Source: a virus (lineage: Duplodnaviria; Heunggongvirae; Uroviricota; Caudoviricetes). Taken from it: a stretch of DNA of 64,000 nucleotides. The notes under the pieces were generated by a model. The model had not been told where the DNA came from and did no database searches. It was given only the letters and a program-made list of their open reading frames with translations. The translations under genes were made by a program, and so were the position numbers. Location: IMG/VR virus record IMGVR_UViG_3300028886_000053; one strand, 5' to 3'. Below are positions 1 to 64,000 of the stretch, piece after piece. Positions within the stretch are counted from its first letter, which is position 1. Every line of letters begins with the position of its first letter.

Positions 1-2
1 TC

Positions 3-3000
3 CAAGATATTTTAAAAATTTATCCTGAATTAGAGAAACAAGTAAGTATTTTAAATAATACTCAACTGGCTGGAACAAGAGATTACGAATCTGCTTTAAG
101 GGATGTAAAATTAGCATTAATGTCATCTTATCTTGCTATGGGAGAAATGGGCAAAATAACGTCTTAGGATTTTACTAATCAAATGATGACATTAGTGACT
201 GATACAGAAATGTTTCAGAATCTTTATTAGACAGGTGCATTAAACAATGAACAATTTAGTGCAATTCTTCAAAATTTAGCTGCTCAATATGAAAGTTGTA
301 AAGATGAATTGGCTAAATATAATACATAGTTAAGAACTGGAACTGAAGAAACTAAGAATGCCGCAGCTTTTAATTTAATGTTAGCAACTCGTTCTGCTGA
401 AAATGCAGATAAATACGGTATTCAAGCTTAGCAAATTTCTGCCTTAGCAAACCATTATGTAGAGTTAGCTCGTAGTGGAAATTAGGCTTATCAAGGCATG
501 GATTAGAGCAGCGAGTTGGCAGTAGATGCTGCTACTCGTTATATTAGATTGAATGAGGCTGTTTAGACTTTACAGAAAGACTATGCTAAAGTTAGTGAGA
601 CTCTATCTGCTTTACAAAATTATGATTTTGGTGAAGTTTTAGGTGATGCAGATTATGCAAAAACTTTTGTAGAAATTAAAAAAGCAGTAGAAGATATTAT
701 TGGTATAGAAGAAGGTCTTCTTGATGATGATTTTATAAAATAGCATACATAGGAAATTAAAGAAGCCGCAAATGGATCAGAATAGGCTATTATATCCTTA
801 CAAGAGGCTGCCGCAGAAGAAATTTGGGTAAATGTTAATTTAGATGATGAAAAATTTAGAGAAGCTACTTAGATGTCTAAAGAAGAATTTGCAGACTGGA
901 TTAATAATTTACCAGAAGGTGAGTTAAGTCTTGATGATACTCAAATGTTAGAAACTTTAGCTAATGCTTTACTTGAAGCAGGGTATTCAGTAGCAGATCT
1001 TTAGAATATGTTTGAAGCAGCTCATTTAAATATAGATATGGAGGCGGATCCTTCTAATGTAATCGAAGCAGCAAATCAAGCTATTGCAGCAGTAGATTCT
1101 ACAGCGTATGATGCTTAGTCTGTTTCATCTTCTCAAACTCAAACTGACCAACAAGAAACAGGAGGGTATGAATTAATTCCTCATGATTAGCAAGGTCATT
1201 TTGAAACTCCTCTTTTTAGAGAATCTGTAACACCTTTTGGTGTTATTCCTGAATATGGAGGAATGTAGAGTCACCCTTTCACATATACTGAATTTACTTC
1301 TAAACCAGACAAACAAACTCAAGATATTTCTAATGTCAATACTGTTACTGGTGTAAAAATTAAACATGCAAACAAAGCTCCAGTAGGTGGTCAAGTTAGC
1401 CATAAAAATAAAAATGGTGGAAACAAAAAAAATACTGGTGGCGGCGGTAAAAAGGGTGGCGGTGGCAAAGGCGGTAGTAGTAAAGCCAAAGAACCTAACA
1501 AAGCTAAAGGGGCTACTAATAAAGCTGACCGTTATCGTAATAATACTGTTAAAGCTAATAAACTTGCTAATTCAATGACTAAGTTAAATAAATAGCAAGA
1601 AAGATTAACTGGTAAAGATTCTCTTAAAAACTTATAGAAACAACTAGCAGTTCTTGAAAAACAAAAAGATGTTATCAGGGAGCGTTTAGGTCTTCAAAGA
1701 GATGAGCAAAATGAGTTAGCTAATAACCTTAAAAAATATGGGGCCACCTTTGATAAAGATGGTACTTTAAATAATTATTTTACTACTCATGATAAGATTC
1801 TAAAAGAATACAATGATAAAGTTGCTGAGTGGAATCAAATGACAGCAGAGCAACAAGAGAGTAATAAAGATTATTTAAATAATGCTAAGGAGATAATGGA
1901 TCAAGCCTTTAAAGATTTAGAGCGTTATGATAAACTCCAACAAGAAATAGCTAAGACTCAACAAGAGCAAATAGATAAAGTTCAAGAACAAATTAATTTA
2001 AAAGTTAAATAGCTTGATTTGAAGATTAAGGCGGAGCTTGATTTATCCGAGGCTAAACGAGATTGGAATAAATTCCAGAAAGATATTGTTAATGAGATCA
2101 GAGATGATGATATTTTAGGTTTAAATAGATTTAGATTTGCAGATATTGCTTCTTACTATAATAATGCGGGAACCGGTTCAATCCAGAATTTGACTAATCG
2201 CTTAAAAGAAGTGATGGGAAATCAAAATGGAATCTTCTCTGGTTCTTATTTTACATAGCAACTAGCTAAAATGTCTATAACAGACCGGGCCGCGCAATTA
2301 GAAAAAGTTAAAAAAATCTTTGATGATCTACAAGATCAAATGGAAGGTTTTAAAGAGATTGCCGATGAAATTAAGGAGTCTATCTTTGATGCTATTGATG
2401 CTACTCAAGATGCTTTTGACGAGCAAATGGATGAATATGAATACTTAGGTGATTTGATTGATCATAATATGAAAATTACGGAAATGTTCTTCGGGGATGA
2501 AGCATATGATCAAATGGCTAAATTCTATGATAGAATTGAAGAAAATAATAATGCTCAATTAGATTTCCTTGCAAAACAAAAAGATTTGTGGTATAGCCGT
2601 ATGGCGGAAGAACAGGCTCGTATGAATCAGCTAGCTCAGACTCAAGGAACAGATTCTAACCTTTATAAAGAAGCGAGAGATAGATTTGAAGAATATAAAA
2701 AACATTGGATGGATATTGTAAAAGATTTAAATTCTACGGTTGAAGATGCTCTTGATAATATTATGGATAAATATAATAATGCTATCAATAAGATTCTTGT
2801 AAATTTTGAATTAAAACTTGGTGATGGACACACTTTAGATGATATTGAAGATGAATGGGATATATTAAACGATCAAGCAGATAGATACTTTGATAAGATC
2901 AATGCAGCATATGAAATTGATAAATTAGAAAATACCTTTAACGATGCTATTAATGATAATGATGGGGACATAGCTGCTCAACAATCTTTAAATGATTTAA

Positions 3001-4448
3001 TGGAACAGCAATTAGCTTATTTAAGAGATAAATAGAGATTGACTCAATATGATGTAGATAGAGCAAACGCATTACTTCAAATTGAAATGAAACGATTAGC
3101 TCTTGAACAATCTCGTTCTAATAAGAATAGATTGAGATTAAGAAGAGATTCTCAAGGTAATTATACATATCAATATACTGCTGATACTGAAGCTATTAGC
3201 AAGGCAGAACAAGAACTTGCTGATGCTCAAAATAGTTTATATAATAGTGATAAAGCGGCTTATGTAGATAATTTAAGTGATATTCAAAAGTCTGCTGAAA
3301 ACATTAAAAATAAATTAGAAGATATTTGGACAGATGAAAATCTATCTAAAGAGCAAAAACTTCAAAAGAGTTATGAATTAGAGAAATATTATGGAGATCA
3401 AATTAATAAATTATTAGAGGATAATGCTAATATAAGAAATAATTTAATTCAATCTAGTACAGAAGAATTAGCAAAGATTTATGGAATTAATATAGAGCAA
3501 TTCCAAGCATTATCTGATACAGAACAAACTAATATTTTGAAAGATTTAATTCCTCAGGCGGGTTCTTATTTATCTAAAATGACCGAAGGATTAATTGGAG
3601 ATGGTGGAATCGGTAAATTATTTGAAGATTCTATTAATAGATTTTTATAGGCAGAAGATGAAAGAATTAATAGTATTGCCGAAATTGAAAGAAATGGTCA
3701 AATTAATTTTGAAGATATTATAAGTGATACTAATACTGTTATCGGTCAAGCAGAACAATTATTAGATAATAACGAAGCTTTAATCAATAGTTACGAGCAA
3801 GAATTAAATGCAGTGCAAAATACTATAAATGGTGTAAATGATTTGATTCAAACTTATGAAAGAGCTAAACAAGCAGCAATATAGGCAGCAACTGCTGCTA
3901 ATAATTTTATTAACCAAGAAAATGTAGAATTAATCGGAAGCTCTTTAAGTCGAGAGGCAGCCGCACAAAGAGCTAATGATAATATTCTTAATTCTTGGGT
4001 AGCAAATGGAAATTCATATGGAGATTTACAAAATTACACTCCTTACGAACCTAATTGGCACAGCTCTGATTTTGCTGCTATATTTGGTAGTTCAAATGTT
4101 GGTTTAGCAGATTTGGCTGCTCATCAAGAAGCATTACAGAATACAGGAAGTACTACTGGTAATATTATTGGTCAAAGTGAATATACTCCTATCAATGTCA
4201 ATAGTATATTAGATACTATATAGTCTAATGTATCTCATATAAATGATATATTGGAAGCACTTTACACTGAAAGTTCTAACTATTATACAAATGCTTTAAA
4301 TAAAGCGAAAGATATAGAAAGAGCTATTATTGCTAACCAAACTGTACATATAGATGCGGACTTCCCTAATGCTAGAGATGTTTCTAATATTATAGATGCT
4401 ATTAATAATTTAACTTTAGTAGCTGCTCAAAAAGCGGGAAAGATTTGA
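3..4448 (+). CDS. Tape-measure-like long helical structural protein, 5'-partial, TAG read-through
   Basis: One frame (positions divisible by 3) is open from 3 to TGA 4446-4448 with only TAG interruptions (165, 228, 327, 429, 483, 504, 2256, 3033, 3648 and others). It joins track ORFs 2019, 2271, 3039 and 4251. Ala/Glu/Leu-rich helical composition with a Gly/Lys linker; lies upstream of tail genes. Function is inferred. Confidence 0.7.
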
Positions 4449-4455
4449 GATTAAG

Positions 4456-4479
4456 CTGTGGGGGCTAATGCCCCCACAG
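4456..4479. other. GC-rich intergenic hairpin without U-tract
   Basis: CTGTGGGGGC-TAAT-GCCCCCACAG, a perfect 10-bp stem between the tape-measure stop and the next RBS. Confidence 0.7.
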
Positions 4480-4502
4480 TATATAAAAAGGAGGGATTAT
4501 TA

Positions 4503-7500
4503 ATGTTAAATAATTCAAACCAAATATCTGAAGCTATATTAGAAGCAATTAATATAATTTCAGATAAAAAAATATCTAAAGCAGAATTTTCTTCAACTAT
4601 ACAAGGTACAATAGTTGAATGTAAAGATGCTTCTTTAGGTAAATATCTAGTAAAATATCAAGATAGTTTATTAGAAGCATATTCAACTTCTCCTTCAGTA
4701 TCTTATAGTAAAGATAGTTTAGTTTATATTTTTGTTCCAGACGGCAACTTAAAAGAATATAAAGTTATTTTAGGAACAACTAAACAACTAGGAACAAATT
4801 ATATTGAAGAATTTACTGGAGAAGAGTATTTTGACGCGGGAGAAAATTTTATTTCTAGCGATTATACAATAGCAATGAGTTCATATTAGACTAAATAGCA
4901 TGAACTTTTTAATAGAAACGGTGAAAATAATATTATTACCTTATCTGAAAATATAGCTAATGAAATTAGAAATGCAAATTATTTAAAAATGACTGGCACA
5001 GTTCAGACTGGATTGCCATATGATCAAAAAAGAAATGGGCATTATGGAGTTAGAATAACTCTAATAATGAAGAATAGTGCCACTGGCGTTGAAGAACCTC
5101 AAGATTATTATTTCGATAATAATAACTTCTTTGGTAATCCATATGAATATACAACAGCATCTAATCAAGTAGTATCTTGTTAGATTGATAGTGATAATTT
5201 TGTGGCGGTCGACCGTATTGTATGTTTTGTCTAGGATTTCCCGAATCAGGTAGAGTAGGGAGAGGAACCACCGGCCGCAGATATATTTATTTATAATTTT
5301 GCAATTAATGGGAGTTATAAATTAAATGACAGTGAAAAATCTTCAGTTGCTATTGTTTTAAAAGCGGAACGTGGTTATACATTTGGAAAAGATTCTAGTG
5401 ATGATGATACTCGTTCTATTGTTGCTAATCTTAGAGTAAAAATGAAAGAAGTAAATTTAGAATAGCAGAATGTTCAGATTTACTGGTTTATACAAGATTT
5501 AAAGATAACTTCTCGTAGCCCATAGTATTTAAATTATGGTGGTATGGGATGGAGATGTATTAATGAAAAAGTTATTTCTGATAATGAAACACCAAATAGA
5601 TTTAATCCTTCTCCTTCTATTGAAATAAAGAAAGAAGATGTTGCTTTTTCTAAGCAAACAAAGTTTAAATGCGTGGCTGTATATGATAATAAATCTTATT
5701 CTAAATAGTTTTTAATTTTTAATCAAGGAGCAACTTATGAAGTTACATTAATTTCTTCTGAAGGAACATCTTTCCATCATTCGGCTGGGCATCCTAATCT
5801 TATTTGTCAAGTCTGGAGTGAAGAAGATGGAGAAAGAAAAGAAATAACTGATTAGGAAAATAAGATTTTTAAATGGCAAGTTTGTAATTATCAAAATAAA
5901 ACAACAGATATAATAGAAGATGATGTTTTATATGTAAAGGCTTTAAAAAACAAAGCAGAAATTGAAGATGCTGTCGGAGTTGAAACTTATTGGAACTAGA
6001 CATGTGAAGTAGATAAATATTATGATGATTTTGGACTTTCAAAACAAGATGGTCTAAAAACATATAAATAGTTTTATGATTTATATAATAAAATTATATT
6101 TAGTTATGAGAATAATCAACATTTAGAAAGAAACATTTTATATAATGTAAATTTACAAGAAATTATTAATTCTAGTACTTTCAGATGTTCATGTTACGAA
6201 AAGAAAGATAATGGTATCTAGCAATTAATTGGAACTGCTTCTATTGAAATTAAAAACACTCCTACTTCTTCTAATGGATATGCATTAGTGATAAATCATG
6301 GAGATCAAACTTTTCTTTATAATGAAGAAGGTGCTTCTTTACATAGCAATGCTATTGATGAACCATATCAACTTTTTGATTTATCTTATACATTATATTA
6401 TAATGGAAATGAAATAAAACAAGAAGATTTACAAAATGGAACTACTGTAACTTGGAAAGTTCCTATTGAAAATACTATGTTAGATATGGGTAGTAATGAA
6501 TATATTACTGATACTGAAAATAATTTACCGATAGGTATTAAAAATACATATGATAATAATTTAAGTAATAATGATATTTATTTAATTATGCAATATAAAG
6601 ATCAAACCTTTATTACAAAAACTAATTTTACCTTTAGTAAGTAGGGATAGAATGGAACTAATGGTACAAAATATCAATTTAAATTAAAAGTAAAAGATAA
6701 TAAAGAGCCTGTTATTACTTATAAAAATGGATAGTGGGAACCAGAAAGTTTGATTGTTGAACCTGAATTATGGAATAATGGAATAAAAACAGAGATTAAC
6801 GGTATTTTAAATTGGAAGATTTTAAAAGATAATTTAAAAGGTAGTTCTTCGATGTTAAGTAATGATTTTAAGCCAGTAATTCAGAAAGGTAGTAATTTAA
6901 AAGATAGATAGTTTAATTTACAAGAAAGACCTTCGATCGTAGAAGGTTTATCAAATATTATTGAAGCGTAGTATTCTAGCGGACCAGATGGATATAAATA
7001 TTATGCAGATTTACCTATTTCATCTATTATACAACAAAGTGAAGATGATAGATATAACGTAAGAATAAAACCTGGTACTGGTTTTAGATATGTTACTTAT
7101 AGTAATGATGGAACTAAACCTTCTTATAGAAAAGGAAATCCGTTTGAAGTAAATATTTATAAAACGATTATAAATGATATTGAAGAAGAAGTTACTAATT
7201 ATTAGAATGAAGAATTTACTTATGAGTGGGAAGTTCTTCCAAGAGAAAGTAAATTATTATAGATTGTTTCAAAAAATGATGAAGATGATGAAAATATTTG
7301 TACTGTTGTTCCTGTTGATGTATTTACAAAAGGAAATCAAGTAGATAATGCTTTATTATTAACAATTAAAAAAGGTAAAGAAGAAGAAAAAGAATTATTT
7401 GCACAGGTTCATATCCCAATCCATTTTATGTTAAATAGATATGAGAATAGAGCTTTAAATGATTGGAGCGGGACTGCAATTGAAATAAATAATGAAGATG

Positions 7501-8969
7501 GATATATATTAACTCCTCAAGTTGGTGCTGGTAAAAAGGATAATTATAATCGTTTTACTGGTATTATCATGGGATAGACTAAAACGAAGGATAAAAATTA
7601 GATTGGATTCAAAGATTAGACTGGGTTATTTGGTTATGCGGCCGGTGCCCGCAGTATTTTCCTAGATGCGGAGACTGGTAATGCCTAGTTCGGTTTAGCT
7701 ACTAAAGGCCAGATTAAGATTGATGTAGATGGTCCTGCTGCAATTAGATCAGGTGATTATCCTAAAAAAGAAGAAGATCCGAAGAAAGGAATGTAGATTC
7801 AATTTTCAGACCCGCCGCATATTAAGTTTGGTTCAGGCAATTTTGAAGTCAATCATGAAGGTCATATCCATGCTGTTGGGGGTGGTGACATTGCAGGATG
7901 GCAAATTAGTGATGATTCTTTATCTAAAGGATACGTTACATTAAGTTCTAACAATGATAAACCTACTAATTAGGCAATTAAGGTTACAAATGGAGAAAAA
8001 AATATTTTCTCTGTTGATTATCGTGGTTACTTACATTCAGAGCAAGGTGATATTGCAGGTTGGACTATTGAGCCAAATAGATTATTTAAAAATAATGTAG
8101 GTATGGCTTCTACTGGAGAGCATGCTTTTTGGGCAGGAGATAGCTTTTATGTAAATCATAATGGAACATTACATTCTTCTCAGGGAGATATTGGTGGATG
8201 GCAAATAAAATCAGATAGATTAGTAAAAAATAATGTTGGTTTATCTCCTGTTCGTACTGCTAATACACCTAATGCATTTTGGGCAGGAAATGTTTTCCAT
8301 GTAACTCATGATGGGTATTTGTATGCTAAAAACGGTAATATTGGTGATTGGTATTTTGGAAATAAAGGTCTTTATAGCAATGGAGGAACTCCTTATTGGG
8401 ACATAAATGGAACTGGAGTTTATGTTGGTGCGGATGGAATAAGATTAGGAAAAAATTTTTACGTTCAGTCAAATGGTTATTTATACGCTCAATCTGGAAA
8501 AATTGGTAACATAACAATAAGTGGAAGAGGATTATCTGGTGATAATTTTAATATTGATGGAGCTGGTGTAGCAAAATTTACTGATGTTATAATAAATGGT
8601 GCTAGCGTAACAGGAATGATGAAAGCTTCTAACTCTGGAGGTTTTAGTGGAGGAGGAGGATTTACTAGTACTGGAAGTGGAACTAGATTTGATCCTAGCT
8701 CTGTCACAACTACAAAAGGAGATACTATTGATAAACATACTGAAAATTTAATTATTAATAAAATTACAGCTAATTATATATCAAGTAAATTAAATGAGTT
8801 AGAATCAGTTTATGTGCAAAGATTGTCTTGTACAGGATCTATGACAGCAAAAGATTTTAATGCAAGAACATTAACAAAAGATGACGCTGATGTTGCAACA
8901 GAAGATTATGTAAATGGTCTTTTTAATTCTTTATTAAGAAGGATTGAAGCTTTAGAAAATAAATCTTAA
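4503..8969 (+). CDS. Large tail/baseplate-associated protein (1488 aa), TAG read-through
   Basis: AAGGAGGG RBS, then ATG 4503. I read the frame through the gaps between track ORFs 4458, 4989, 6288 and 8103 and found only TAG until TAA 8967-8969. C-terminal G(D/K)I(A/G)GW-type repeats are typical of tail fibre/spike proteins. Confidence 0.75.
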
Positions 8970-10781: not shown

Positions 10782-11270
10782 TTAAAATGCACTTGCATGC
10801 TATTTAACATAAGCAAGACCTAAACCAATAGCATCACTTATATCATCGTTTACTTTGATTCCATACTAATTTTTAACTAACTACATACTTGCTTTTTTCA
10901 AACCTTCTCTTTTTATACCGCGGCCGGTCTTTATCCCGCAGATTCTACGCCAATGACTAGCAGTATAGAACTAAACATTCTATAAACTATAAGTCTAATA
11001 TAAACTTAATACAATCATAGCTTGTAAATATATTAGCACTTTATATACAGATTGATTATGTTTTACATCCTATGGCAAAACATCTTCCATAACAATATTA
11101 GTTGGCTTATATTTTTTATATATTTCTAAAATCCTATTCTTCATTTTAATAATTCTTTTAAAAGAACTACTATCTGTAGCAATAATACACTAGTAATGAA
11201 TTAACTTTTCATCCTAGAAAATTGCTATACCTGTACTTTTACTACTTGCATCTATCGCTAAAACTTTCAT
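10782..11270 (-). CDS. ruvC: RuvC-like Holliday junction resolvase (162 aa, 9 TAG), absent from ORF track
   Basis: MKVLAIDASSKSTGIAIF*D...IVMEDVLP*D...VNDDISDAIGLG shows the RuvC catalytic D, E and D/D motifs; ends in TAA. Confidence 0.8.
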
Positions 11271-12988: not shown

Positions 12989-13471
12989 TCACAACCTTTC
13001 TGCATATTGATTATCGGAAGCAAGATTCACACCTAATACTTCATCATAATGAGGAGTTTGATTTGGAATATATCGGCCGTATTTGATAATTATATTTTTA
13101 TATTGATTTTCTTTAATAAATTTTATAAGAGTCTGTGGACGCTCTTCTTCTTTATTATATCCAGTATATATTACAAAATCATCATTGGAAAATTCTCTAA
13201 ATTTTTTTATAAAGAGGAATAACATAACCATGGTATCAAGAGGTTCAAGTCCTTGACAAACTATTGCTTCTGTTATAGGATTTTTTAAATATTTTTCAAT
13301 AATATATTCTTCTTCAATTTTAATAGGACGAACCTTTGTGAGAGGACTGTTTTGACAAATTGGTTTTCCATATTCTTTATCACATTTAAAATCACAACAA
13401 GGGAACTCAATCACCATAGCAGGCTTTTTATAATTAACAAAATCTTCATCAATAATTCCTTTAACAAACAT
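12989..13471 (-). CDS. nrdG: Anaerobic RNR activating enzyme (radical SAM-like)
   Basis: Cys-rich N-terminus (CCDFKC...C), GLEP, and IYTGY motifs; directly downstream of nrdD. Confidence 0.75.
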   Translation of the reverse strand: MFVKGIIDEDFVNYKKPAMVIEFPCCDFKCDKEYGKPICQNSPLTKVRPIKIEEEYIIEKYLKNPITEAIVCQGLEPLDTMVMLFLFIKKFREFSNDDFVIYTGYNKEEERPQTLIKFIKENQYKNIIIKYGRYIPNQTPHYDEVLGVNLASDNQYAERL

Positions 13472-23044: not shown

Positions 23045-23239
23045 TTAATCATCAGCTCCCGATTTTATCATCTTTTGAACTTCTTTTCCTAGTTTTGTAT
23101 AACAATTTATACAAACACTATAGTCTGGAGTAGAAAAACCATAAAGATTATTTAAATCAGGAACTTTAACCTTATATAAATCTTTTTCTTTTGATACTGT
23201 TTGTTTACAAAAATCACATATATAAATTGTTTTTATCAT
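23045..23239 (-). CDS. Small Zn-binding protein
   Basis: CDFC...CINC. The likely start is ATG 23239, in a TAATG overlap with the read-through RecJ stop. Confidence 0.6.
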   Translation of the reverse strand: MIKTIYICDFCKQTVSKEKDLYKVKVPDLNNLYGFSTPDYSVCINCYTKLGKEVQKMIKSGADD

Positions 23240-35431: not shown

Positions 35432-35436
35432 TATAT

Positions 35437-48028: not shown

Positions 48029-48044
48029 AAAGGAGGAATGAAGA

Positions 48045-50711: not shown

Positions 50712-50726
50712 TAGGGGGGTGGCGAA

Positions 50727-53700
50727 ATGGCTCAAATAAGTTATGGTTCAATAACTATTGTTGATACTAATGACATATAGAGATTTTATGTTTAGTATGC
50801 TAAAAGTGATAGTTCTGCGGCCGCCCCTACAACTGGATGGAGCTAGGATAGACCAACTTGGTAGAATGGAACTTATATTTGGCAACGTACAGTTGCTAAA
50901 AGAGAGGGAGTTCCATTAGCAAATTCAGATTATGGCAATCCAGTATGTATCACAGGAGAAAAAGGTGATACTGGTCAACAAGGAAATACTGGTAATGGTA
51001 TTTCTTCAATTATAACAGTATATTGTAATTATGGAAGTGGAACTCCAGCAGAAAGTTATTCTGGTTGGAGTTCTGATGTTCCAGAATATGATAGTGATAA
51101 ACCTAATTATTGGGTAAAAACAACTGTAAACTATACTTTTGGAAGTCCAAGTATAACTATTTATAAAGATTTAGGTATTACAGAAGCAACCGAAAAAGCA
51201 AATTTGGCAGTTGTAACAGCACAAACTGCTAATGCAAATTCTATTGAAGCAATTAATATTGCAGGAAGTAAAAATAAAATATATTATAGTGATGGTTTTC
51301 CTACTAGCGGGACTTATATAAATGGAGATATTTTATTTAAATAGTCTACAACTGGAACTGTAATGTATATTTATGATAATACATATACTGATGCTACTAG
51401 TGGACATTGGAAATTAGAACAGTTTGAAGAAAATGCAATTGCGAATTTAGCAATTACAGATGCTAAAATTGCAAATTTAAGTGGTAATAAAATTGTTGCT
51501 AATACTATTACTGCAACTCAAATTTATTCACATACAATTACTTCTGCTGAATTAGCAACAAATGCAATTCAATCAACTAATTATAGACAAGGAACAGCTC
51601 CTTATTCATTAGAAGGAACTTTTCTCGATTTGTCTAATGGTAATATATATAGTCCAAATTTTGGAATAAATAATACTAATGATAATATTACAGACGGCGC
51701 TTATATAAAAGGTTCTATTTATGCTTATAATGGAACAATAGGTTAGAGTAATACTAACTATTGGTATATAGGTAATTATCGTGGTTACGATCAACAACCT
51801 TCTGCATATATAAAAGGAAATGGAACTGCGACTATCCAATTGGGAAGTAGTAGTACATGGAGATTAAATACAAATAGAATTCATACTGCATGGAATGATG
51901 ATAGTAATTCGGGCAATGCTTATAGATTACATTATCCTGTTTTTGAAGATAAATATTGGGATATGGGAGTTCATGTCCCAACTAGTAAAATAGATAAGTT
52001 TTTATATATTAGATCTTCTGACCCAAATAATGCTGCTATTTCAAATTCAAATACTTTAGAAAATCTTTCTAATGATATTAATGATGCGATTGGAGATTAT
52101 TGGAATTATCAATTTTATGTAACCAGTGAAGGTAATTTATATGCTAAAAATATTTATATATTAGACTAGTATAATAACCCTATTCAAATTGGAGGCTCTG
52201 GCGGAATAGCTGGAGTTTTACCAATTTATAGCGGAGGCACGGGAAGTATTAGTTTTACATCAAAAGGAATTGTATATGCTAGTGATACAAATCCTCAAAC
52301 CTTACTTTCAACTGCGGCCGGTACGTCTGGACAACTTCTAAGTTCAGGAGGGAGTGATGGTACACCTTCTTGGATAAATGCATCTAGTTTAAGCGTGAGT
52401 CATGCAACGACCGCAACTCAAGATGGAAGTGGTAATGTAATTACTTTAACTTATATGCCTTTAAGCGGAGGTACTTTCACTGGTTAGGTTACTATTGAAG
52501 ATTCATTAACAGTTTAGGATGGAATTACAGGAGATTTAACAGGTAAAGTAAATGGTTTTACATTAGAAATGAATGTTCCTAGTGGGTCAAAATTAACTGA
52601 TACAGTGACAACAGTTACAACAACAGGAAATGGAAATGCTATTACTTCTATTTCTGCGACTAATGGTGCTATTACTGCTACTAAAGGAAGTACTTTTTTA
52701 ACTTCATATACTTAGACAGACCCTATTTTTTCAGCAAGTGCAGCAGCAAATATTCAACAAACTGACATAAGTAATTGGAATAGTAAAACAGATAATATAG
52801 GTACTGTAACAAGCGTAAAGGTTCAAGCTTCAACTCCATTACAATCTAGTGTAAATACTGCTCAATCTGGAACTTTAGATACTACAATATCTTTTATTAA
52901 TCAGAATGTAAATACAGTATTAGCTGGACCAAGTAGTGGAACAGCGGCTGCCGCTCCAACTTTTAGAAGTTTAGTGGCTGCGGATATACCAAATTTAGCT
53001 TGGAGTAAAATTACAAGTGGAAACGATGACTTGAAAGCAATTGAAGCTTTAACTGGTACGACAGGATTATTAAAGAAAACTGCTGCTAATAAATGGGCAT
53101 TAGATACTACTTCTTATGTTCCAAGTTCTCGAACTATAAACGGGCATGTTTTAAGTGATAATATTAGTATAACAAAAGCAGATGTAGGTTTAGGAAATGT
53201 TGAAAATGCTTTACAAATTATAGATATTGGTTCTAATGATGCTGGTCAATTAGTTTTAACTTTTGGAGATAATTCAACTGATACTAGAACAGTTTCAATT
53301 ACAGCAACAACATCTTCATCTGTTGCACAAGCTGAAGCTCTTAATACAAATGGTGCGAAAATAGGTGATTCTAATCAACCTGTTTATTTTGGAACAGATG
53401 GGAAACCTGTTGCCATTTCTTATACTATTGAAAAATCTGTTCCGGCAGATGCAATTTTTTCTTATACTTTTGATGGTACATACAATGCTTCTACAAATAA
53501 AGCTGCTACTGTATCCACAGTGACAAATGCTATTAATGCACTTGATGGAGGTACAATTGGCACAGGAGGGACTGGAAAAACAATTACTTCTCTTTCTCAG
53601 ACTAATGGTCAAGTAAGTGCTACATTTAGTAATATTAGTATTACTAAATCTCAAGTTAGTGATTTTTCTCATTCACATGGTAATATTTTAAATGGAGGAA

Positions 53701-54362
53701 CTATTACTTCTACAGCAATAGCTTTAGGAAATGGGGATAGTTTATTATTTTCTGATTCTTCTAATAATGGAAAAATTGAAAAAAGTTCTATTACAATAGG
53801 AACAGGAACTACTAAATATTTAAGATAGGATGGTACATGGGGGACTCCTGAAGGAACTTATTCTTTACCTCTTGCTGCAAATGGAACTAGAGGTGGAGTA
53901 CAAATAGGTTATTCTAGTTCTGGTAAAAATTATGCAGTTCAATTAAGTAATGAAAAAATGTTTGTAAATGTACCTTGGATTGATACTACTTATGAGGCAG
54001 CTACAACTAATCCTTTAATGGATGGTACTGCGGCGGTGGGTACTTCCGAGAAATATGCTAGATAGGATCATAAACATCCTAGTGACACTTCTAGAGTACC
54101 TACAACTAGGACCGTAAATGGACATGCTTTAAGTGCAGATATTACTATTAGTAAATCAGATATTGGGTTAGGTAATGTTGAAAATACTGCACTATCAACT
54201 GCCTTATAGGATTATGTAACATTAGCTACTACACAAACTATTTCTGGAAGAAAAACTTTTAATGATTTAGCTTCAACTGTTTTTAAAGGTAGTACAGGAA
54301 GCAAATATTGTAATATAAATTATGATTAGACGCTAAGTGCTTTAGTATTTAGCTTTGGATAA
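50727..54362 (+). CDS. Tail fibre protein (1211 aa, 14 TAG)
   Basis: Joins track ORFs 51363, 51840 and 52974. Contains a GEKGDTGQQG collagen-like piece, *TDP, AR*DH.HP, and two RT(I/V)NGH.LS...GLGNVEN repeats; ends TAA 54360-54362. Confidence 0.8.
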
Positions 54363-54367
54363 AATTA

Positions 54368-54406
54368 GCGGACGTTGGTTTATGTCAGGATTTGACCAAC
54401 GTCCGC
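54368..54406. other. GC-rich intergenic hairpin without U-tract
   Basis: GCGGACGTTGGT / ACCAACGTCCGC 12-bp stem. Confidence 0.7.
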
Positions 54407-54428
54407 ATATGTTAGGAGGGATGAAGAT

Positions 54429-55664
54429 GTGAGTTTAAGAGTTTGGTTACCTCTTAATGGGACTCTTGATAATCAAGGGTTAGATGATGTGGTTGTGACT
54501 AATAACGGAGCAACTATTGATAATAGTGGGAAAATTGGAAAGTGTTATAATTTTGATGGAAGTAATGATTATATTTCTTTTCCATACTCTTTTCCTAGTG
54601 AAGATTGGTCTTATAGTATTTGGTTTTATACAACTTCAACTAATACTCAAACATTAGGATGTTGTAGAAATGGAGTTGGTTTTGGATTTTCTATTTTTTT
54701 AATTTCAAATAAAGTAAGGATTGATGGAATTATTGGAAATGATAATCAGCAATGGACAACTATTTATACTTATCCAACTGATACTTGGACAAATTTAATT
54801 GTTACTTCTAAAAATGGTTTAATAAAATATTATATTAATGGAGAATATCAAACGAGTAAAAATATTACAGTAAATAATACTAAATTAGGAAATGTTTTTA
54901 CTATTGGAGCAAGCCAAACTAATGGAAATAATTTAGGAAATTATTTTAAAGGTAAAATAAATGATGTCCGTATATATGACCATGCTTTATCACCAATGGA
55001 GGTAAAACAAATATCACAAGGTTTAATATTACATTATTTATTGAACGATAAGGGATTTAATAATAATATAGAATATGATTGTTCTGGATATTGTAATAAT
55101 GGAACAAAAATAGGAACTTTTCAATATCAAAATGATACTCCCAAATATGATACTAGTACATATGCACAAGGGGGTGCTTCCACTCATTTGGAAGGTATTA
55201 TTCTTCCATCTGAAGTAAAAACAGTTTCTTTATGGATAAAATGTGCAAAAACTGTTAATTCCGCTATTTTTAATGATCGAATTACTGGGTTACAAATAAG
55301 TTTAATAAATTCTTTATTATATGTAAATTCTTTAGCTTCAACAAAAGGTTTTACTACAACCCATTGGAAAAATAATGAATGGAATCATGTGGTAGTAATA
55401 AATAATAATGGAACCCGTTTTTGTTATGTAAATGGGTAGGCAGAAACTCAATCTGGATCCTCTAATTATTATATACATAATACAGATAAGTTTTGGTTAT
55501 GGAATCGTTCATATGATAATAATTATCCTTTTAAAGGGAATCTATCTGATCTTCGTATCTATTGTACAGCTCTATCTTTAGAAGATATACTTTTATTATA
55601 CCATAATTCAGTTTATATAGATAATTAGGGCAATATATATGGAGCAATGTATGAAGAGGTGTAA
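54429..55664 (+). CDS. Tandem LamG/concanavalin-like domain protein (411 aa, 2 TAG)
   Basis: SLRVWLPLNG...GKIGKCYNFDG...INDVRIYDHALS, and a second copy W.HVVV...YVNG*...LSDLRIY.TALS; ends TAA 55662-55664. Confidence 0.75.
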
Positions 55665-55666
55665 AA

Positions 55667-55837
55667 ATGGATTTAACTAAACAAGGAAAATGGGTTTGTA
55701 ATGGTACAGAAAAAACATTAACTATTAATAATCAATAGACTAATATAATATCTGGTTTCACCGAGGGTGACTTGACAAAATAGGTAAAATTTTATAAAAT
55801 ATAGGAAATAGAAGCAAAATGCTTTTATTAGATTTAA
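55667..55837 (+). CDS. Small tail-region protein (56 aa, 4 TAG)
   Basis: MDLTKQGKW...AKCFY*I, ending in TAA; starts 2 nt after the previous stop. Confidence 0.55.
55772..55800 (+). promoter_or_regulatory. Internal sigma70-like promoter
   Basis: TTGACA-17 nt-TAAAAT inside the preceding small ORF. Confidence 0.5.
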
Positions 55838-55860
55838 TTGAGTAAAAAGGAGATTTTATT

Positions 55861-56340
55861 ATGACTAAAGAACTTTTAGTAATGGAATGTATTAATATAA
55901 ATGGATGGTACAATCAAGTTAGAGCAGATAAAAATAAATTAAATGGTTTATCTGTTCCTACTTTATGGGCATTAAGAAAGAATATGAAAAAGATTGCAGA
56001 AACAGTAGAATCTTTTAACGATCTTAAAGCATCTTTAGAAAATGAATTGCAAGAAGAATTTTTTAACGATGAAAAGAGTGAAGAAACGACTATTAAAGGA
56101 ACTAATGGAGAAGATACTCCTGCAAGAAAAGTAAAAGATGAATATTTTAATGCTTATCAAAATAAAATTAAAGAATTAAATGGAAAGTTAAATGAATTAG
56201 CAATAACTAAAGAAAGTTTTGATTTTACTCCTATTAATATGGAAAAAGAAATAGAAAGATTAAATACAGATTGCAATTTAAATATGGATGATTTAGATAT
56301 GTTATCTATTTTTGAATAGAATGAAAAGGATGCTGAATAA
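55861..56340 (+). CDS. Helical protein among tail genes (possible chaperone); single TAG near C-terminus
   Basis: AAGGAG RBS; the track ORF ends at TAG 56317-56319, and read-through adds *NEKDAE to TAA 56338-56340. Confidence 0.65.
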
Positions 56341-56375
56341 GCCTCCTTTTTTAAATTTTGAAAGGAGGTTTAAAC

Positions 56376-59300
56376 ATGGCAATTTTAAAAGATTTAATTG
56401 TTCATGGCTCAAGCCGTTTTTTAAATAAGATTTATGCAAGTGAAATATAGACTCCATTAATTGAGGCGGAAGCTGGTATATTTAAAAAGCTAAAAGCAGA
56501 TGATGCAACGATTGTAGGTTTATTAGATGTTCAAGGATAGATGCATACTAATAGTTGGACTAATTCTAATATAGCTACAATTGATGGGAGTTTTTATATT
56601 ACACCTACATTATCCAGTAGTTCTGGAACCGTATCATTCAGTAGTGCGACTGCCGCAACCTTTACAGGGACATATTCAGCTGTATCAAGTTTATATATAG
56701 GAAATGATACAGCTAGTACAGTTCAATGGACTTCAGGATCTAAAATTTTAATAACTGGAGAAGTTCAAGTAGATGAGGAATGGATTCCTTTAGGAACTTT
56801 ATTAGGAACTTTAAATAGTACTAATCCTACTACTTCTATGCCTATTGTTAATATTACAGATAATAGAAATAATACTTCTAATATTTTAACTAATATATAT
56901 AGTTTAAAAAGTAATACTTCTTTAAGTTATCGTAATTTAAAAATTTCTTTATATCAAAGAGCAGATAATTCTGAATATTATCCTCTTGGTATTTTTATGA
57001 CAGCCTTAGGCCAAAATGGAAAAACTTTTCTTGATATATATGGTGGAGTTAATGCTTTAACAACTAGCTATGGAGGATATGCAAATCCTAATGTTAGAAT
57101 AGGTAATTTATCTGGGTTACCTGCTATAACAACGGCCGCAGGAAATTTTTCACCTGTTGGTTGGGGTATATATACAACTAATGGTTATTTCAGTGGTACT
57201 ATTGTTTCTAACACAGGTGTGATTGGCGGCTGGAAGCTTGGAGCAAGTAGTTTATATAATGGAACTACTGGATTAAATAATACTACTGCTGGTATTTATT
57301 TAGGTACCGATGGTATTAGAAATTATAAAGATACTAATACTTATGTAAATATTATACAAGGTGTAATTACGGCTAAAGGAGTTAATTTAACTGGAGAAAT
57401 AACAGCTACTAGGGGTACTATTGGTGGTTGTACTATTACAAATGGGACTTTAATAATAGGAAATGCTAATATTAATGATATAAATGCTAGTAAAATAAAT
57501 GCAGGTGATATTGCTGCTGCTAGAATTGAAACAAATCTTATTTCTGCTATTAATGCAAAAGTAAGTGATTTATCTGCTCTAACTGCAACTATAGGTGGTT
57601 TTCAAATAGATTCATCTTCAATTCATACAAATAATGTAGTAGTTACTTCTAATGCTGATAATTCAATTGCTTTATCTTCAGCAGATTTTACAAGAACTAT
57701 TAATAGTATATCAAGAACTGGCTTAAGACTTGCAATAGGAGATAAATTTGGTGTTACTGGAGATGGAACTGTATATGCTTCTGATGTTGATTTAACTGGT
57801 AAAATTACTGCAACATAGGGTGAGATAGGTGGAATTAATATAATAGATGGAGATTTAGATGTTTCTTCTATTAATATTGGAGATTTAAATGGAGCTAGTA
57901 ATTATGCTCTGAAAACAGAAATAACAGATGCTGAAAAAGTTGCAACTTCTTATATTACATATATAGATTCAACAGAAGGTATAAAAATTCATAATATATC
58001 AGATCAAACTAATTATCTTAAACTTAATTCTTCTGCGATAAGTATGTATCGTAATAATATTGAAACTTTAAATATCAGTAATAATGAAATAAGAATTGGT
58101 AAATTCAGTGATAATAATGTTTTTATTGACAATGACTCTGTTGATATAAGAAATGGTACAACAACCCTTGCCAGTTTTACTGGTGATAATACTAGGTTCT
58201 ATGACCCTATATATAAGAAAGAGTTGGCTACATTTGGCGCAAGTGGTGCAATTATTGGAGCGAATAGCGAACAAAGATTTATAATTGAAAAAGACGGAAT
58301 AAAATCAATTAATGATAGTGGAGCAACGGTATTTTCTGTTAATTCGACAGAAGGAACTGTTGTTACAGAAGCACAAGTTGCTTCTGGTGGTGAGACTATT
58401 TATTATTCTTCTTCAAGTAAAACTGTAGTGTTTGATACTGTTGGTACTGGGTTTACTACCAATACAACCTTTTATACAAAAAAACTTACGGCTATCATCG
58501 AAATACGTAATTCAGCTAAACCACTAACGAATGTTAAGGTGAATTCGGTTACCGCTACATCGATATTGGTTAATAGCTATAGTGGCTATTGGTATAGTAG
58601 TACACACTCTATTGATTTATCCCCCTTTACTTTTACATATGGAACGTCTAAAAGCGCAACATATCAAATAACCGCATCTTTTGTAAATGATTATGGTGAT
58701 TCTTATAATTTAACCGCACAAGCTTCAATTAACTATGATGGAAATGTAACCCTTACGGTGCAATCATTGACTGGTGAATGTGTTAGAACAAGTGGTAACA
58801 ATGAAGATATAGCTAGAATGGATTTGATTGGAAGTAAGGTTGTTTATGGTGAAATTTATCAAAGTTCCGCTTATACAAAAGCCCCTGCTATGACATTCGG
58901 AACAAGGGGCAAAAATGCAATATTAGCCCCGTTCTCTGTAACCATAGGAGAAGATTTATATGCTAATAATGATAATCAATTATCTATTGGTAGATATAAC
59001 TTAAATAATGATGAGTTTTTCCCACTTGCTTTTGCTATTGGTAATGGCGTAAATGATACCGATAGGTCAAATGCATTTAATGTAGATTGGGATGGTAATA
59101 CTGAAATAGCCGGTAAGGCAGAAATAGCTGGTAATTTAACTGTTGGGGGTAACGAGACTATTACTGGAGGTTTAACTGTCAATGGTATAATAACTGATTC
59201 TTCTAATAGTTATAGTACAATTAAATATTTAAATGTTGGATATTTAACAGTTAGTACTAGAAAACCTTTTTCACTTGTCCAAAAAACATATACTAGAACT

Positions 59301-59552
59301 ATTACTGCAAATTCTGCTTGTTATATTAGTTAGAGATACACTTCACCGACAGGGTATATTCCAGTTGGAATAATTGATTGGGGAACTTTTAATGGAACTA
59401 ATGCCGATTATTGTGTAATGTGTCATGCTTATATTTGGAGAGGAAATCCTAATACAATAGATATATATGTATGGAATCAACATCCAAGTGCATCAGCTAC
59501 TAATGTAGTAATATATGTAAATATTTTATGTATAGCAAATACATTCTTATAA
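56376..59552 (+). CDS. Tail fibre/spike protein (1058 aa, 4 TAG)
   Basis: AAAGGAGG RBS; joins track ORFs 56541 and 58044; ITAT.G.IGG repeats and AFAIGNG...RSNAF.VDWDG motif; ends TAA 59550-59552. Confidence 0.78.
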
Positions 59553-59598
59553 AAAAAAATGAATCTTTATAATTTTTTATAAAGATTCATTTTTTTTT
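59551..59598. terminator. 21-bp hairpin terminator
   Basis: AAAAAAAAATGAATCTTTATA / TATAAAGATTCATTTTTTTTT with a 6-nt loop. Confidence 0.75.
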
Positions 59599-59602
59599 AT
59601 TT

Positions 59603-59618
59603 GGGCAAATATAAATAA
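59603..59618 (+). promoter_or_regulatory. Candidate late-promoter motif
   Basis: GGGCAAATATAAATAA immediately after the terminator. Confidence 0.35.
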
Positions 59619-59679
59619 AAAATAATATTCTTTTTTAAATTTATTAAGATGATATAAAATAAAAAAGGGGGAATGTTCT

Positions 59680-62600
59680 ATGGCAGGTTTAGGAAATAAC
59701 TTATATCCGCCAATCTTTAAAAATGCTTATGCTCCAGCATTTGATAAAACAAATCCACAAGGATGTAGAATATACTTTTCCTTATCTCCATATAATTCTC
59801 TAGGAGATTTTGCTAAATATGAAAGCTCAGGAAAAGAAGTAATAGCAGATTTAGTACAGGTATCAATTCAAAATCAAAATACAAATTATTCTGCTTTAAA
59901 TTTAAATAAATATCCATCTGGTATTATGAATACTAAAATGTATGAAGATAAAGAACGTACTACAGATGATAAATATTACATTATTATAAATAGTTTTAAT
60001 ACAGGAAATGAAGCAAATTCTTCAGAAACGTATGATAATATGGCTGATTTAGCTGAAGGAAATGTTTTTAATGCAGGAGAATTTTATAAAGTTCAAATCC
60101 GATTTACAAGTAATCAAGTAGTTCTTCCAACTCAGTATTCTTTAATAGAAGAAAGTTGGTATAATTCTAATATAAGTTATTTTTCATAGTGGTCTCAAGT
60201 AGTCTTAGTAAAAGGTATTACGAAACCAATATTAGAATTAAATGATTTTTCAAAAAACTTAGATGAAGAATCTTTTACTTTACAAGATATATATGTAGTA
60301 GGAAGAGTAACTTTCCCAGATAAAAATGATAATGAATATTTGAAAAAATATAAAATTTAGTTATATGATTCAAATAATAAAAAAATCTAGTCAAGTGGAG
60401 AAATTTATTCTAATGCTTATAATAATATTAATGGAATAAATTATAAAATTAAATATAACCTAGATAATAATAATGAAGAATCATTTTTATTGATAGTTTA
60501 TATACAAACTAATAATTTATATGAAGAAAAATTTATTTTTCCATTTAAAGTGGATTTAATTCAATATACAGTATTAGGTTCTGATATACAAATTGAGGCG
60601 GCCGGTGATAAAGAAGGCGGCCGCATTAAAGTTCATGCTTATTCTAGTAGTAATATAGATAAATTAGGAACTAATTTTATTATTAGAAGAAGTTCTAGTA
60701 AAAACAATTTTGAATATTGGGAAGACATGTATACTTTTTTAGCTCCAATAGGAAAGAAACTAGATCAAGTTTGGATTGATAAAACAGTAGAAAGCGGAGT
60801 CTTTTATAAATATTGTTTACAACAAAGAAATATTCAAGGTTTTAGATCTAATTTTATTCAAATTAGACAACCTATAATGATTGTGTTTGATGATATATTT
60901 TTAATAGATAGACAACAACAGTTAAAAGTTAAATTTGATCCACAGGTAAATAATTATTCTCATGTTGTTTCATAGACATTAACTCAAACGATTGGTTCCA
61001 AGTATCCTTTTATTAGACGAAATGGAAATACTGATTATAGAACTTTTTCTTTAAATGGGACTATTTCTTATTTAATGGATTTAAGGGAAGATGGAATGAA
61101 AGCCTCTCCTAGTGAATTATATGGGATGGATCAAAATAAAAATGATATTTATTCAAATTATTATATACCTTTTAATAATTCAAATGGTATTAATGTTTAT
61201 AATGATTCTGTTCGCTAGAGAGATTTTAGAGAAAAAGTTATTTAGTTCTTATATAGAAATACCGTTAAATTATATAAATCTACAACAGAAGGTAATTTAT
61301 TAGTAAAATTAATGAATATTAGTTTTACTCCTAATAATACTTTAAGTAGACATATTTATAGTTTTACTTGTACTGCTCAATAGGTTGATGATTTTAATAT
61401 TTAGAATTGTAATAAATATGGAATTCAAAGTGTAGGTCAGTATACAAATGAAACTAAGGTAAAAATTAATACTCATGGTCAATTATCTGTTCCTAATTTA
61501 AGTTATTATTATACTAAAACAAATAGTTGTGCAAATGAAGATAAGGATACTACAGATAATAAAGATAAAGCTCAAAATGTATATGAAAATAGAAAATATT
61601 TTGGAGTTAATGCAGACTTACATTTTGCTGGTAATGAAAATATTATTGCAAAATATTTACTTCCAAAATATTCTTATTTAGAAAATGACTTAATAAAAAT
61701 TAATATAGATCATTTATCTTATTTAAGAATATAGTTTACTTCCCCTCCTTATTTAATTACTCAAGAAGGAGAATTTTTCAAAAAGACTACAGATAACTCT
61801 AAAGCACAATTTTTAGGTCATATAATATATGTAAATGATAATCCAATTATAGTTGGACCAGAAGGTATTTATGAACTTTCAGATTCTTCTACAAAAATAA
61901 CTAGTTTATCTTTCTTATCAGATCAATAGACTGGTAATATTTCTTATCAAGCTGTTATAGTAGAAGAAGAAAGAGAAGAAAATATTCCTAAAATGTACGG
62001 TACTTTTAAGAGAATAGGACAACTATTTGGATATTTTAATTCCTCTGAATCGGTTTATAAGAAAATTTATAATAGATACTATCAATCTTTTTCTTCACAA
62101 AACGACTCTTCTTCTCAAGTTATTTATTCTCAACATTTACAAAAATTAATGGGAATGAGATTACAAGCTAAACCAGGAACAGTTTTTTTAATTCAATAGG
62201 CACAAGATAGAGTTGACGCTTAGGGTACTACTTTAAGTTATGATTATTATATAATGAATGAAACAGGTTTATTAGATATATACGATGAAAGAACTGATAT
62301 AAGAGGATGTTATGTAATTGGACCAAAATTAAAACCGGTAGAAGAAAAACTCAATGGAGAAGTTGGAGATAATGAATATGTTTTAGTAGATGAAACATAT
62401 CATGATTTTTCATAGATAACAAAACCAAAAAAGAATCATGTATATAAATTAACTGAAGGAAGTGATTCTTTATTTGCTTTACGGAGTAGATTTTATAATA
62501 CAAATGAAGCAAATATGGTAGGATATAATGTAGAAGAACCAGAAGAAATTACTGTGATTGATTATCGTACTATATTAATAAACAAAAAATTAGCAGATAG

Positions 62601-62724
62601 TGTTTATTGTATTTTTTATGGCGGCAGCTGGTATTTATTCTCATTAGACCAGGGTATTGTATTAGGGTATCCAACTGAAGCTATAATAGATTATTATTGT
62701 TAGATTTTAAGGGAGAGATATTAA
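59680..62724 (+). CDS. Large conserved baseplate/distal-tail-like protein (1014 aa, multiple TAG)
   Basis: One frame joins track ORFs 59680, 60490, 61993 and 62515; TIGSKYPFIRRNG and KSTTEGNLLVKLMN motifs; ends TAA 62722-62724. Confidence 0.72.
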
Positions 62725-64000
62725 TGAAAGTTTCATATAGTTATTTAAATGATGTTGCCTTCCTTAAAGAACTTGCTAAATAGCATGTTAAAACATATTA
62801 TGTTAAAATATCTGTTTTAAATTGGAAAGAATAGCCAGTAACTTCAATAGAAGGACAAGTAATTTCTGCTAATTTAAATATAGATGGCCAGAGTTCTTTA
62901 AGGAGAACGGCCAATTTAAGCATTGCAATAGACGATACAATGAATTAGATAACTAATACAGAAAACGTATTGTCTATTAATAAAAAAATGTGTTTAGAAA
63001 TAGGATATGTTAATACTACTTAGAAGTACACTAATTATCCTATTTTGTGGTTTCCATTAGGAATATATGTAATTATATCTTGTTCTATTTCAGAATCTTC
63101 AAGCGGCCTGGTGGCTTCCCTGCAACTCCAGGATAAGATGTGCTTATTAAATGGGACTGCGGGCGGGACCATACCGGCCGCCGCAGACCTTCACATTCTT
63201 GATACTATTGATGAAGATGGAAATGAAGTTACTAATTATGTAACTATGTATCAAATTATTCAAGAATTAGTACATCACTGGGGCGGATAGCAATTAGGTA
63301 AAATAATTATTTCTGATTTAGATAATAGAGTTAAACAGGCTATGAAATGGGGGTTAGAAAAACCTTTATATTATGTAGAGTCTGGAAATCAAGATAGATA
63401 TTTTATGGATGAAAGTGAATATCAAAATTATATAAATAGTTTAGAAAGTTATTCTACATAGATTTTTACAAAAGGACAAGATGTTGGATTTATCTATGTT
63501 GATTTTATTTATCCTGGTGAATTGATTGCGGACGCCGGTGCTTCCGTGACAGATATGCTAGATCAAATCATATAGGTATTAGGTAATTATGAATATTTTT
63601 ATGATTTAGATGGAAATTTTATTTTCCAAGAAAAAAAGAACTTTTTAAACAATGCACAATCTAAATATATTTTAGATGCAAAAAATAATACTAAAAACAT
63701 AAATGGAAATCTTATTCCTGACCCTAAATTAGTACCAGATTATTTAGCATCTATTTCTAATTCTTTATCTGCGTATCTAATAAATATGACTAGTGGTACA
63801 TCAGTATTTTAGTTTGAAGATAGCGATTTAGTAACATCATATTCAAACACTCCTCAATATGGGGCAATAAAAAATGATTTCGTAATATGGGGAGTCCGCA
63901 CAGGAGCAGAAGATGTGGAAACTCCTTTGCGTTATCATCTTGCTATTGATAATAAACCAGTTCTTAAAAATATAACATATAAGATGTTTAATTTTAAAGA
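62724..64000 (+). CDS. Baseplate hub-like structural protein, 3'-partial, TAG read-through
   Basis: TAATG overlap start; IDGQSSLRRTANL, WFPLGIY, LQDKMCLLNG and LGNYEYFYDLDGNF.FQEKKN motifs; the frame stays open to the window end apart from TAG. Confidence 0.7.

Follow-up and report, generated by a model that had tools for sequence, protein, structure and literature searches.

Evidence that the amber codon TAG is read predominantly as glutamate in a large gut phage

Introduction

Stop codon recoding is well documented among gut phages, and the described forms read either TAG as glutamine (Gln; translation table, or code, 15) or TGA as tryptophan (Trp; table 4). Borges et al. reported recoded gut-phage clades and did not mention glutamate (Glu) (bioRxiv 10.1101/2021.08.26.457843), code 15 was validated by proteomics (Peters et al., 2022; PMC9523058), only translation tables 15 and 4 were predicted by Cook et al. 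(2024), and Gln was assigned in phAss-1 from TerL alignments together with tRNAscan-SE (PMC10607447). Here we examine the meaning of TAG in a stretch of 64,000 nucleotides (nt), the whole of which is termed the window, from the Caudoviricetes record IMGVR_UViG_3300028886_000053. A first-pass annotation of this DNA, made from its letters alone, had proposed that TAG stands for Glu, not Gln, and had known of no phage example; our literature searches likewise found only TAG as Gln (table 15) for phage amber codons and no report of Glu, which would be, as far as searched, a new amber meaning. Comparison with related phages indicates that UAG is probably read, at least predominantly, as Glu by a phage-borne transfer RNA with the anticodon CUA, tRNA(CUA), with TAA and TGA staying stops. 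We assign this reading a probability of roughly 0.8.

Bases 10827-74826 of a linear IMG/VR viral contig of 111,389 bp (G000), read on the reverse strand, make up the window; the contig has 31% GC and a completeness rating of about 75%. Related IMG/VR records are labeled G001-G018 and individual loci carry L-numbers. Positions are those of the window unless another sequence is named.

TAG is a sense codon in the window

The 39 open reading frames (ORFs) of at least 100 amino acids (aa) in the window contain 160 in-frame TAGs, 105 on the plus and 55 on the minus strand. The first-pass annotation had counted well over 100 of them interrupting genes on both strands, which is borne out, and all 18 of the peptide motifs that it quoted were recovered at their positions and strands. 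When TAG is read through, fragments called under table 11 fuse into frames of 1442, 1503, 1211, 1064, 1062 and 1014 aa, and one further frame of 3005 codons extends past the window edge. ORFs of 150 aa or longer cover 0.50 of the contig under table 11; reading TAG as sense raises this fraction to 0.88, far above the 0.56 obtained with TGA. The 39 ORFs end in TAA (27) or TGA (12), a distribution that is set by the construction of the ORF caller and is no independent test; in the aligned relatives, TAA stands opposite a sense codon in one case only. Core replication genes have almost no TAG, whereas the codon is used heavily in several nuclease genes and in the genes for tail, virion and lysis.

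TAG could in principle still be a stop, the interrupted genes being pseudogenes, split genes or subject to low-level read-through, given that the table-11 fragments remain ORFs and that no suppressor tRNA is present in the G000 contig. Such an account is practically untenable, however, as it has to account for 160 in-frame TAGs in frames 1000 to 3000 codons long that contain neither TAA nor TGA, homology that runs on past the TAGs in dozens of relatives, TAG positions shared between relatives, and relatives that carry tRNA(CUA). Near-identical DNA is also present in bovine-gut metagenomes and in RNA libraries of a second study. The stretch 23239-25056 of the RecJ-like gene, TAGs included, showed no differences from contigs of two bovine-gut RNA-library runs (one sample, separate study), and the TAGs are thus neither assembly errors nor removed by editing.

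Alignments with relatives point to glutamate

Given that the contig lacks a usable tRNA, the meaning of TAG was taken from alignments. The main test gene encodes a RecJ-like single-stranded DNA exonuclease (23239-25140, minus strand; Pfam DHH and RecJ_OB) with 17 TAGs, and a search with its product returned 59 related IMG/VR loci at 42-93% identity. All contig ORFs, with X at each TAG, were aligned to these loci under a context filter blind to the focal position. Queries with the 1211-aa tail protein and the 1503-aa protein gave too few relatives, and 16 whole related records were used instead. The codons found opposite TAGs in the 59 relatives were GAA (259), TAG (140), GAT (74), AAA (56), GAG (52), CAA (40) and CAG (11).

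A Codetta-like site-weighted test was then applied, in which the references were relatives with TAG still a stop, every TAG site had a total weight of one, and the likelihood was scored on empirical substitution profiles from the same alignments. At 79 independent TAG sites the weighted residue shares were 0.54 Glu, 0.11 aspartate (Asp) and 0.07 Gln, and Glu had the highest log-likelihood, Asp scoring -71.8 and Gln -81.9 relative to it. Of the sites covered by four or more references, 59 in all, 38 had a Glu majority; Glu was also the residue at all 24 sites conserved at 80% or more and the best fit in each local-conservation bin. In a calibration where the profile used for a codon excluded that codon, all 50 testable sense codons were assigned correctly, and bootstrapping over sites returned Glu in 2000 of 2000 replicates. 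TAG scores like the rare Glu codon GAG (91 sites; Glu 0, Asp -82, Gln -110). The evolutionary signature of TAG, as read from these alignments, is that of Glu, and the same pipeline returned Glu for eight further related contigs.

Standard code 15, with TAG as Gln as in crAss-like phages, Lak phages and phAss-1, is the sole amber meaning reported for phages; in addition, CAG-to-TAG is a single transition, and exchanges between TAG and CAA or CAG do occur among relatives. Against this stands the likelihood deficit of Gln given above, and Gln holds the majority at only one of the 59 sites and at none of the 24 conserved ones. Nor is the test blind to Gln. The same pipeline gave Gln for a sister clade, G016, G017 and G018 (Gln shares 0.57, 0.52 and 0.43), with 13 of 16 conserved TAG sites in G016 being Gln, and it thus separates Glu from Gln within this phage family. 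We consider code 15 extremely unlikely for the window.

A different residue, with Asp next best, or a non-canonical amino acid is also very unlikely. Asp ranks second both in residue share and in likelihood, and some TAGs fall at conserved Asp columns (five in G001 and two in G002), but it lies about 72 log-likelihood units below Glu, and since the GAG profile has the same runner-up, Asp in second place is how a true Glu codon looks. As for a non-canonical residue, no pyrrolysine or selenocysteine machinery was seen, though no search was aimed at either.

The example sites of the first-pass annotation stand up where relatives align to them. RecJ codon 280 (24193-24195) is Glu in 28 of 28 relatives with TAG as stop and GAA or GAG in 50 of 50 relatives without TAG there, and four sites in the tail and virion genes have GAA or GAG in almost every relative: 60187-60189 (12/12), 61216-61218 (10/10), 61381-61383 (8/8) and 63288-63290 (9/11). 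With homologue residues tabulated at the TAG columns, the proposed Glu, not Gln, emerges clearly. RecJ codon 308 is Glu in 15 of 16 relatives. Cultured Bacillota phages with the standard code supplied eight further RecJ homologues, in which Glu or Asp prevails at the TAG columns of better conservation and Gln dominates no column. Two sites that had been flagged as ambiguous, 29689-29691 and 1593-1595, do show a mixture of Gln and Glu. The former, codon 9 of an AAA_24 ATPase gene (28720-29715, minus strand), is the sole site where relatives favor Gln (Gln 10, Glu 4, threonine 3).

Relatives carry a suppressor tRNA

A suppressor tRNA exists in relatives of the phage. The tRNA arrays of G001 (complete, 142 kb, with terminal repeats), G002 (133 kb, about 93% complete) and G003 each contain one tRNA(CUA), adjoining tRNA-Ser(GCU), and the three suppressors are one another's nearest matches. 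In all three the variable loop is 4 nt long and the D region 16-17 nt. Among Bacillota, the 4-nt variable loop is found in 80 of 80 distinct tRNA-Glu sequences, whereas of 22 tRNA-Gln sequences 19 have a variable loop of 5 nt and 18 a D region of 15 nt; judged by these features the suppressor body does not appear to be of the tRNA-Gln type. The D-arm motif of the G002 suppressor occurs at 120 or more bacterial loci, almost all in Bacillota, and all 112 motif-bearing tRNA genes listed are tRNA-Glu.

In the G003 suppressor, U11-A24 and U13-G22 occur together with the 4-nt variable loop, features that we take to be GluRS (glutamyl-tRNA synthetase) identity elements in Escherichia coli tRNA-Glu; U11-A24 is also present in the G002 suppressor, and G001 has A11-U24. 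By overall identity the G002 suppressor is closest to tRNA-Glu (0.74), and for that of G001 Glu and arginine (Arg) tie at 0.68, with lysine (Lys) at 0.67. Gln is never the top isotype for the three.

The catalytic domain of GluRS or of GlnRS (glutaminyl-tRNA synthetase) was not found in G000-G003 or G006, and a release-factor domain was not found in G000-G003 or G016. Since the genomes searched encode no GluRS or GlnRS, a host enzyme must charge the tRNA(CUA). We propose that UAG in the window would be decoded by a phage-encoded tRNA(CUA) from an array that is absent from this contig, and that this tRNA, with a tRNA-Glu-type body, would be charged by the host GluRS; both the identity of the charging enzyme and purely Glu decoding are what we infer. 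One alternative route to Glu, a host without GlnRS that leaves a Gln-type suppressor charged with Glu, is not supported in general: a GlnRS-type C-terminal domain was detected in five of five gut or rumen Clostridia genomes, with the controls Bacillus subtilis and Lactococcus lactis negative.

The arrays hold other RNAs as well. ROOL RNA (RF03087, 276.7 bits) and transfer-messenger RNA (RF00023, 75.8 bits) were found in those of G001 (L092 5545-6139, minus strand) and G003 (L091 1032-1310, plus strand), and neither is present in the G000 contig. ARAGORN also reported two G001 tRNAs with 8-nt anticodon loops (L092 c9936-10007 and L093 c3052-3127; four-base 'anticodons' tttg and gcat), which may be odd forms of tRNA-Gln and tRNA-Met or program artefacts. 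No theta ribozymes beside the suppressor tRNAs were reported by Rfam at gathering thresholds.

Evidence against an exclusive glutamate reading

Several observations weigh against the assignment of Glu, the first of which concern the tRNA. No tRNA(CUA) was found in the 111-kb G000 contig with ARAGORN or Rfam. G000 is collinear with its closest relative, G003, and starts at about position 8,000 of the latter, just downstream of the G003 array (74-5,743); on the G001 map, the portion absent from G000 is roughly 33 kb and includes the array. The lack of a tRNA in G000 is probably due to the array falling in its missing quarter. ARAGORN runs with lower thresholds or with introns permitted yielded nothing beyond noise on the contig, and the sole Rfam tRNA match, outside the window at C1:107895-107956 (L001 1501-1562; 29.9 bits), was rejected as a suppressor, being a degenerate remnant with a 3-nt 'anticodon loop'. 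The acceptor, D and T arms of this element are intact, and a second T-arm-like hairpin lies immediately upstream. Furthermore, the suppressor of G003 is nearest to Arg and threonine tRNAs (0.68 each), with Glu at 0.62. The D-region comparison is also partly circular because the Glu reference set was chosen by the D-arm pattern of one suppressor; the variable-loop comparison is the only part free of that circularity.

The second group of observations comes from codon exchanges among the close relatives G003-G005, in which TAG is exchanged with a Gln codon at 21 sites and with a Glu codon at 43. Counted per codon, TAG exchanges with Gln at the same rate as with Glu, far above the prediction from TAG's share of Glu codons. 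The same comparison contains 30 direct Glu/Gln exchanges, one TAG/Lys and three TAG/Asp. Exchanges of TAG with Glu codons fall largely at conserved Glu columns, many of them 100% Glu in outgroups, and the TAG/Gln exchanges with outgroup data are, in six of six cases, at variable columns mixing Glu, asparagine, alanine and Gln; the other 15 TAG/Gln sites lie in regions too variable for alignment with an outgroup. The simplest reading is that the Gln exchanges represent easy CAG-to-TAG transitions at positions where a change from Gln to Glu is tolerated, since CAG-to-TAG, a single C-to-T transition, is the easiest route from Gln to Glu, whereas CAA-to-GAA requires a C-to-G transversion. Bulk composition relative to orthologues is ambiguous, the deficit per 1000 residues being 7.9 for Glu, 6.5 for Gln and 3.2 for Asp against 21.2 TAG, and does not separate Glu from Gln.

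These data leave room for UAG being decoded as a mixture of Glu and Gln, either because GluRS and GlnRS both charge the suppressor or because the Glu-charged tRNA is partly amidated, in which case TAG would settle where either residue is tolerated. The 21 Gln exchanges against 43 for Glu, the few Gln-leaning columns such as 29689-29691, the composition deficit that is split between the two residues, and the GlnRS-type domain of all five Clostridia, by which a Gln-charging enzyme may be available in the host, are all consistent with it. Such a mixture is nevertheless unlikely in our estimate. There are 21 TAG sites at columns of at least 95% Glu, including the one at 28 of 28, and no TAG lies at a column of at least 80% Gln in G000, G001 and G002 (about 230 sites with reference data), conserved-Gln columns being about half as frequent as conserved-Glu columns. 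In the mid-conservation bin, moreover, TAG follows the profile of true Glu codons closely (Glu 0.48 against 0.47; Gln 0.07 against 0.05). A minority of UAG codons may still be read as Gln.

Code diversity within the phage family

In the sister clade G016, G018 and G017 (L047, L048 and L054), in-frame TAGs align with Gln codons of the phage studied here, as in the conserved motifs VWQF and NRQTKAQ; two amber meanings, Glu and Gln, therefore appear to coexist in one phage family by the alignment evidence. No tRNAs, and hence no suppressor of this clade, were found in its three fragmentary IMG/VR contigs. Other relatives (L026, L035, L036, L041, L043, L049 and L052; for example G008) have in-frame TGA opposite TGG of this phage in 48 cases, which indicates recoding of TGA to Trp, and a tRNA(UCA) is present in G007. 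Many members of the family have no in-frame stops at all.

In a RecJ tree, the members that read TAG as Glu occupy four separate positions interleaved with standard-code clades; the TGA-type and TAG-to-Gln members are also interleaved. On balance we think it somewhat more likely than not that stop codons were rewritten in three or more ways (to Glu or Gln for TAG, to Trp for TGA) within a single family of large phages that infect Bacillota in the guts of ruminants and other animals, that TAG as Glu is the commonest amber form and, given its four positions on the tree, has been repeatedly gained or lost, and that the body of the phage tRNA sets what a reassigned stop codon means, a viral trait that would evolve fast. 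This would be an unrecognised code of prokaryotic viruses for which NCBI has no table.

Distribution of TAG across genes of the window

The first frame of the window (1-4448, plus strand; TGA end) comprises the C-terminal 1481 codons of the 3005-aa ORF, which has no PHROG match and no assigned function; 23 of its 43 TAGs are in the window. It is followed by an ORF of about 1500 aa, likewise of unassigned function (4458-8969, plus strand), with 25 in-frame TAGs, and relatives have Glu or Asp at 6642-6644, 6648-6650 and 7686-7688 of this ORF. Tail and virion genes form a module of eight ORFs (47291-64000, plus strand; 245, 888, 1211, 222-411, 159, 1058, 1014 and 724 aa) recognized by PHROG tail and virion matches, with 57 in-frame TAGs within the window; the final ORF extends beyond the window end. 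Lysis is represented by a multi-domain lysin of 1062 aa (42513-45701, minus strand) with metallo-beta-lactamase-like, GH25, CHAP and SH3 domains and choline-binding repeats, a combination that holds only when its five TAGs are read through; its TAG at 43482-43484 is matched by GAG in two relatives and by TAG in one.

The replication block on the minus strand is largely free of TAG, and none is found in the genes for DNA polymerase III alpha (16303-20241), an SF1 helicase (21740-22915), DnaB (26630-28168), NAD ligase (33461-35479), gyrase A (36195-38534) and gyrase B (39350-41266). Three minus-strand genes of the replication module have a single TAG on the N-terminal side and are otherwise TAG-free: the AAA_24 ATPase gene at 28720-29715 (codon 9), the ORF at 29790-30746 (codon 8), and the gene for the anaerobic ribonucleotide reductase NrdD (13471-15426; Pfam PF13597), whose TAG at codon 49 (15280-15282) is Glu in four of four relatives. 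A single early TAG could tie the translation of these three genes to the suppressor tRNA.

Among the nuclease genes, also on the minus strand, TAG density is extreme in those for a GIY-YIG nuclease (31868-32806; 16 TAGs in 312 codons) and a RuvC-like resolvase (10782-11270; Pfam PF02075; 9 in 162), where it exceeds that of the tail genes. Codon 153 of the GIY-YIG nuclease is Glu in 10 of 10 relatives, and codon 271 (31994-31996) is Glu in 14 of 21 and Trp in six. Few relatives align at the TAG sites of the RuvC-like gene, and a PDB sequence search for the catalytic residues of its product gave no match. A GIY-YIG/NUMOD homing-endonuclease-like gene (38538-39260) contains four TAGs. Outside the window, the ORF at 91364-91723 of G000 has a TAG at codon 56 where six of six relatives have Glu; its assignment as a DUF559 nuclease was rejected, as Pfam (with X at TAGs) returned no DUF559 and only sub-threshold DUF2726 and DUF7255, and the PDB matches were noise.

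Origin of the phage and implications

The contig is best explained as part of a phage genome of roughly 140 kb from the cattle gut with a Gram-positive, Bacillota-type host. RecJ homologues from cultured phages come from Bacillota phages throughout, including SPbeta-like Bacillus phages, Geobacillus virus E3 and phages of Enterococcus, Staphylococcus, Lactococcus and Enterocloster. Public libraries of both DNA and RNA from the bovine gut contain this phage in abundance, and the claim of TAG as Glu is directly testable.

Recoding-aware phage pipelines, such as prodigal-gv, Mgcod and table prediction of the type used by Cook et al. (2024), offer only TAG as Gln (table 15) or TGA as Trp (table 4). 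If TAG is Glu here, table 11 truncates the proteins and table 15 misassigns 2-5% of positions in the genes richest in TAG, conserved acidic ones included; wrong residues or truncation impair searches for homologues, the prediction of structures and identification by metaproteomics. Phages would then also not be bound to the easy route through tRNA-Gln(CUA) in reassigning amber, and one codon could differ in meaning between closely related phages. In these phages, furthermore, the acceptance by a synthetase of a tRNA with a replaced anticodon could be studied in a natural setting. For GluRS, the anticodon is normally a major identity element.

Comparison with known recoded systems

The closest counterparts are the code 15 phages (crAss-like, Lak, the Borges clades, those of Peters et al., and phAss-1). 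As in the phage studied here, amber is a sense codon concentrated in late, structural and lysis genes, replication genes are almost free of TAG, TAA and TGA are kept as stops, and a tRNA(CUA), known here from relatives, resides in a phage tRNA array with no phage synthetase. They differ in the residue, which is Gln in code 15 phages and by our analysis Glu here, and in the suppressor body, which here appears to be of the tRNA-Glu rather than the tRNA-Gln type; in addition, the hosts are of the Bacillota type here and Bacteroidota for crAss-like and Lak phages. Firmicutes phages that read TGA as Trp, such as the Agate clade (Borges et al.), resemble this family in having close standard-code relatives and code switches over short evolutionary distances, although the stop codon and the amino acid are both different. 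Some of these TGA-recoded phages encode a tryptophanyl-tRNA synthetase and release factor 1, whereas no synthetase or release factor was found in the genomes searched here.

Beyond phages, UAR codons are read as Glu in the nuclear codes of peritrich ciliates and Blastocrithidia (NCBI table 31), and to our knowledge TAG as Glu is otherwise known only from such eukaryotic nuclear codes, in which UAA is reassigned alongside. Those systems likewise read UAG as Glu via a dedicated tRNA. However, with UAA reassigned, their termination has been remodelled genome-wide, whereas here TAA is the main stop (27 of 39 ORFs) and the altered code belongs to a virus whose host presumably retains the standard one. 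Laboratory amber suppressors of Escherichia coli were reportedly also built from tRNA-Glu, in the Abelson/Miller series of 1990, and share with the suppressors described here a tRNA-Glu-type body and a CUA anticodon. The laboratory forms were engineered and partly lost their charging specificity, whereas the phage suppressor would be a natural tRNA under selection in many phage lineages.

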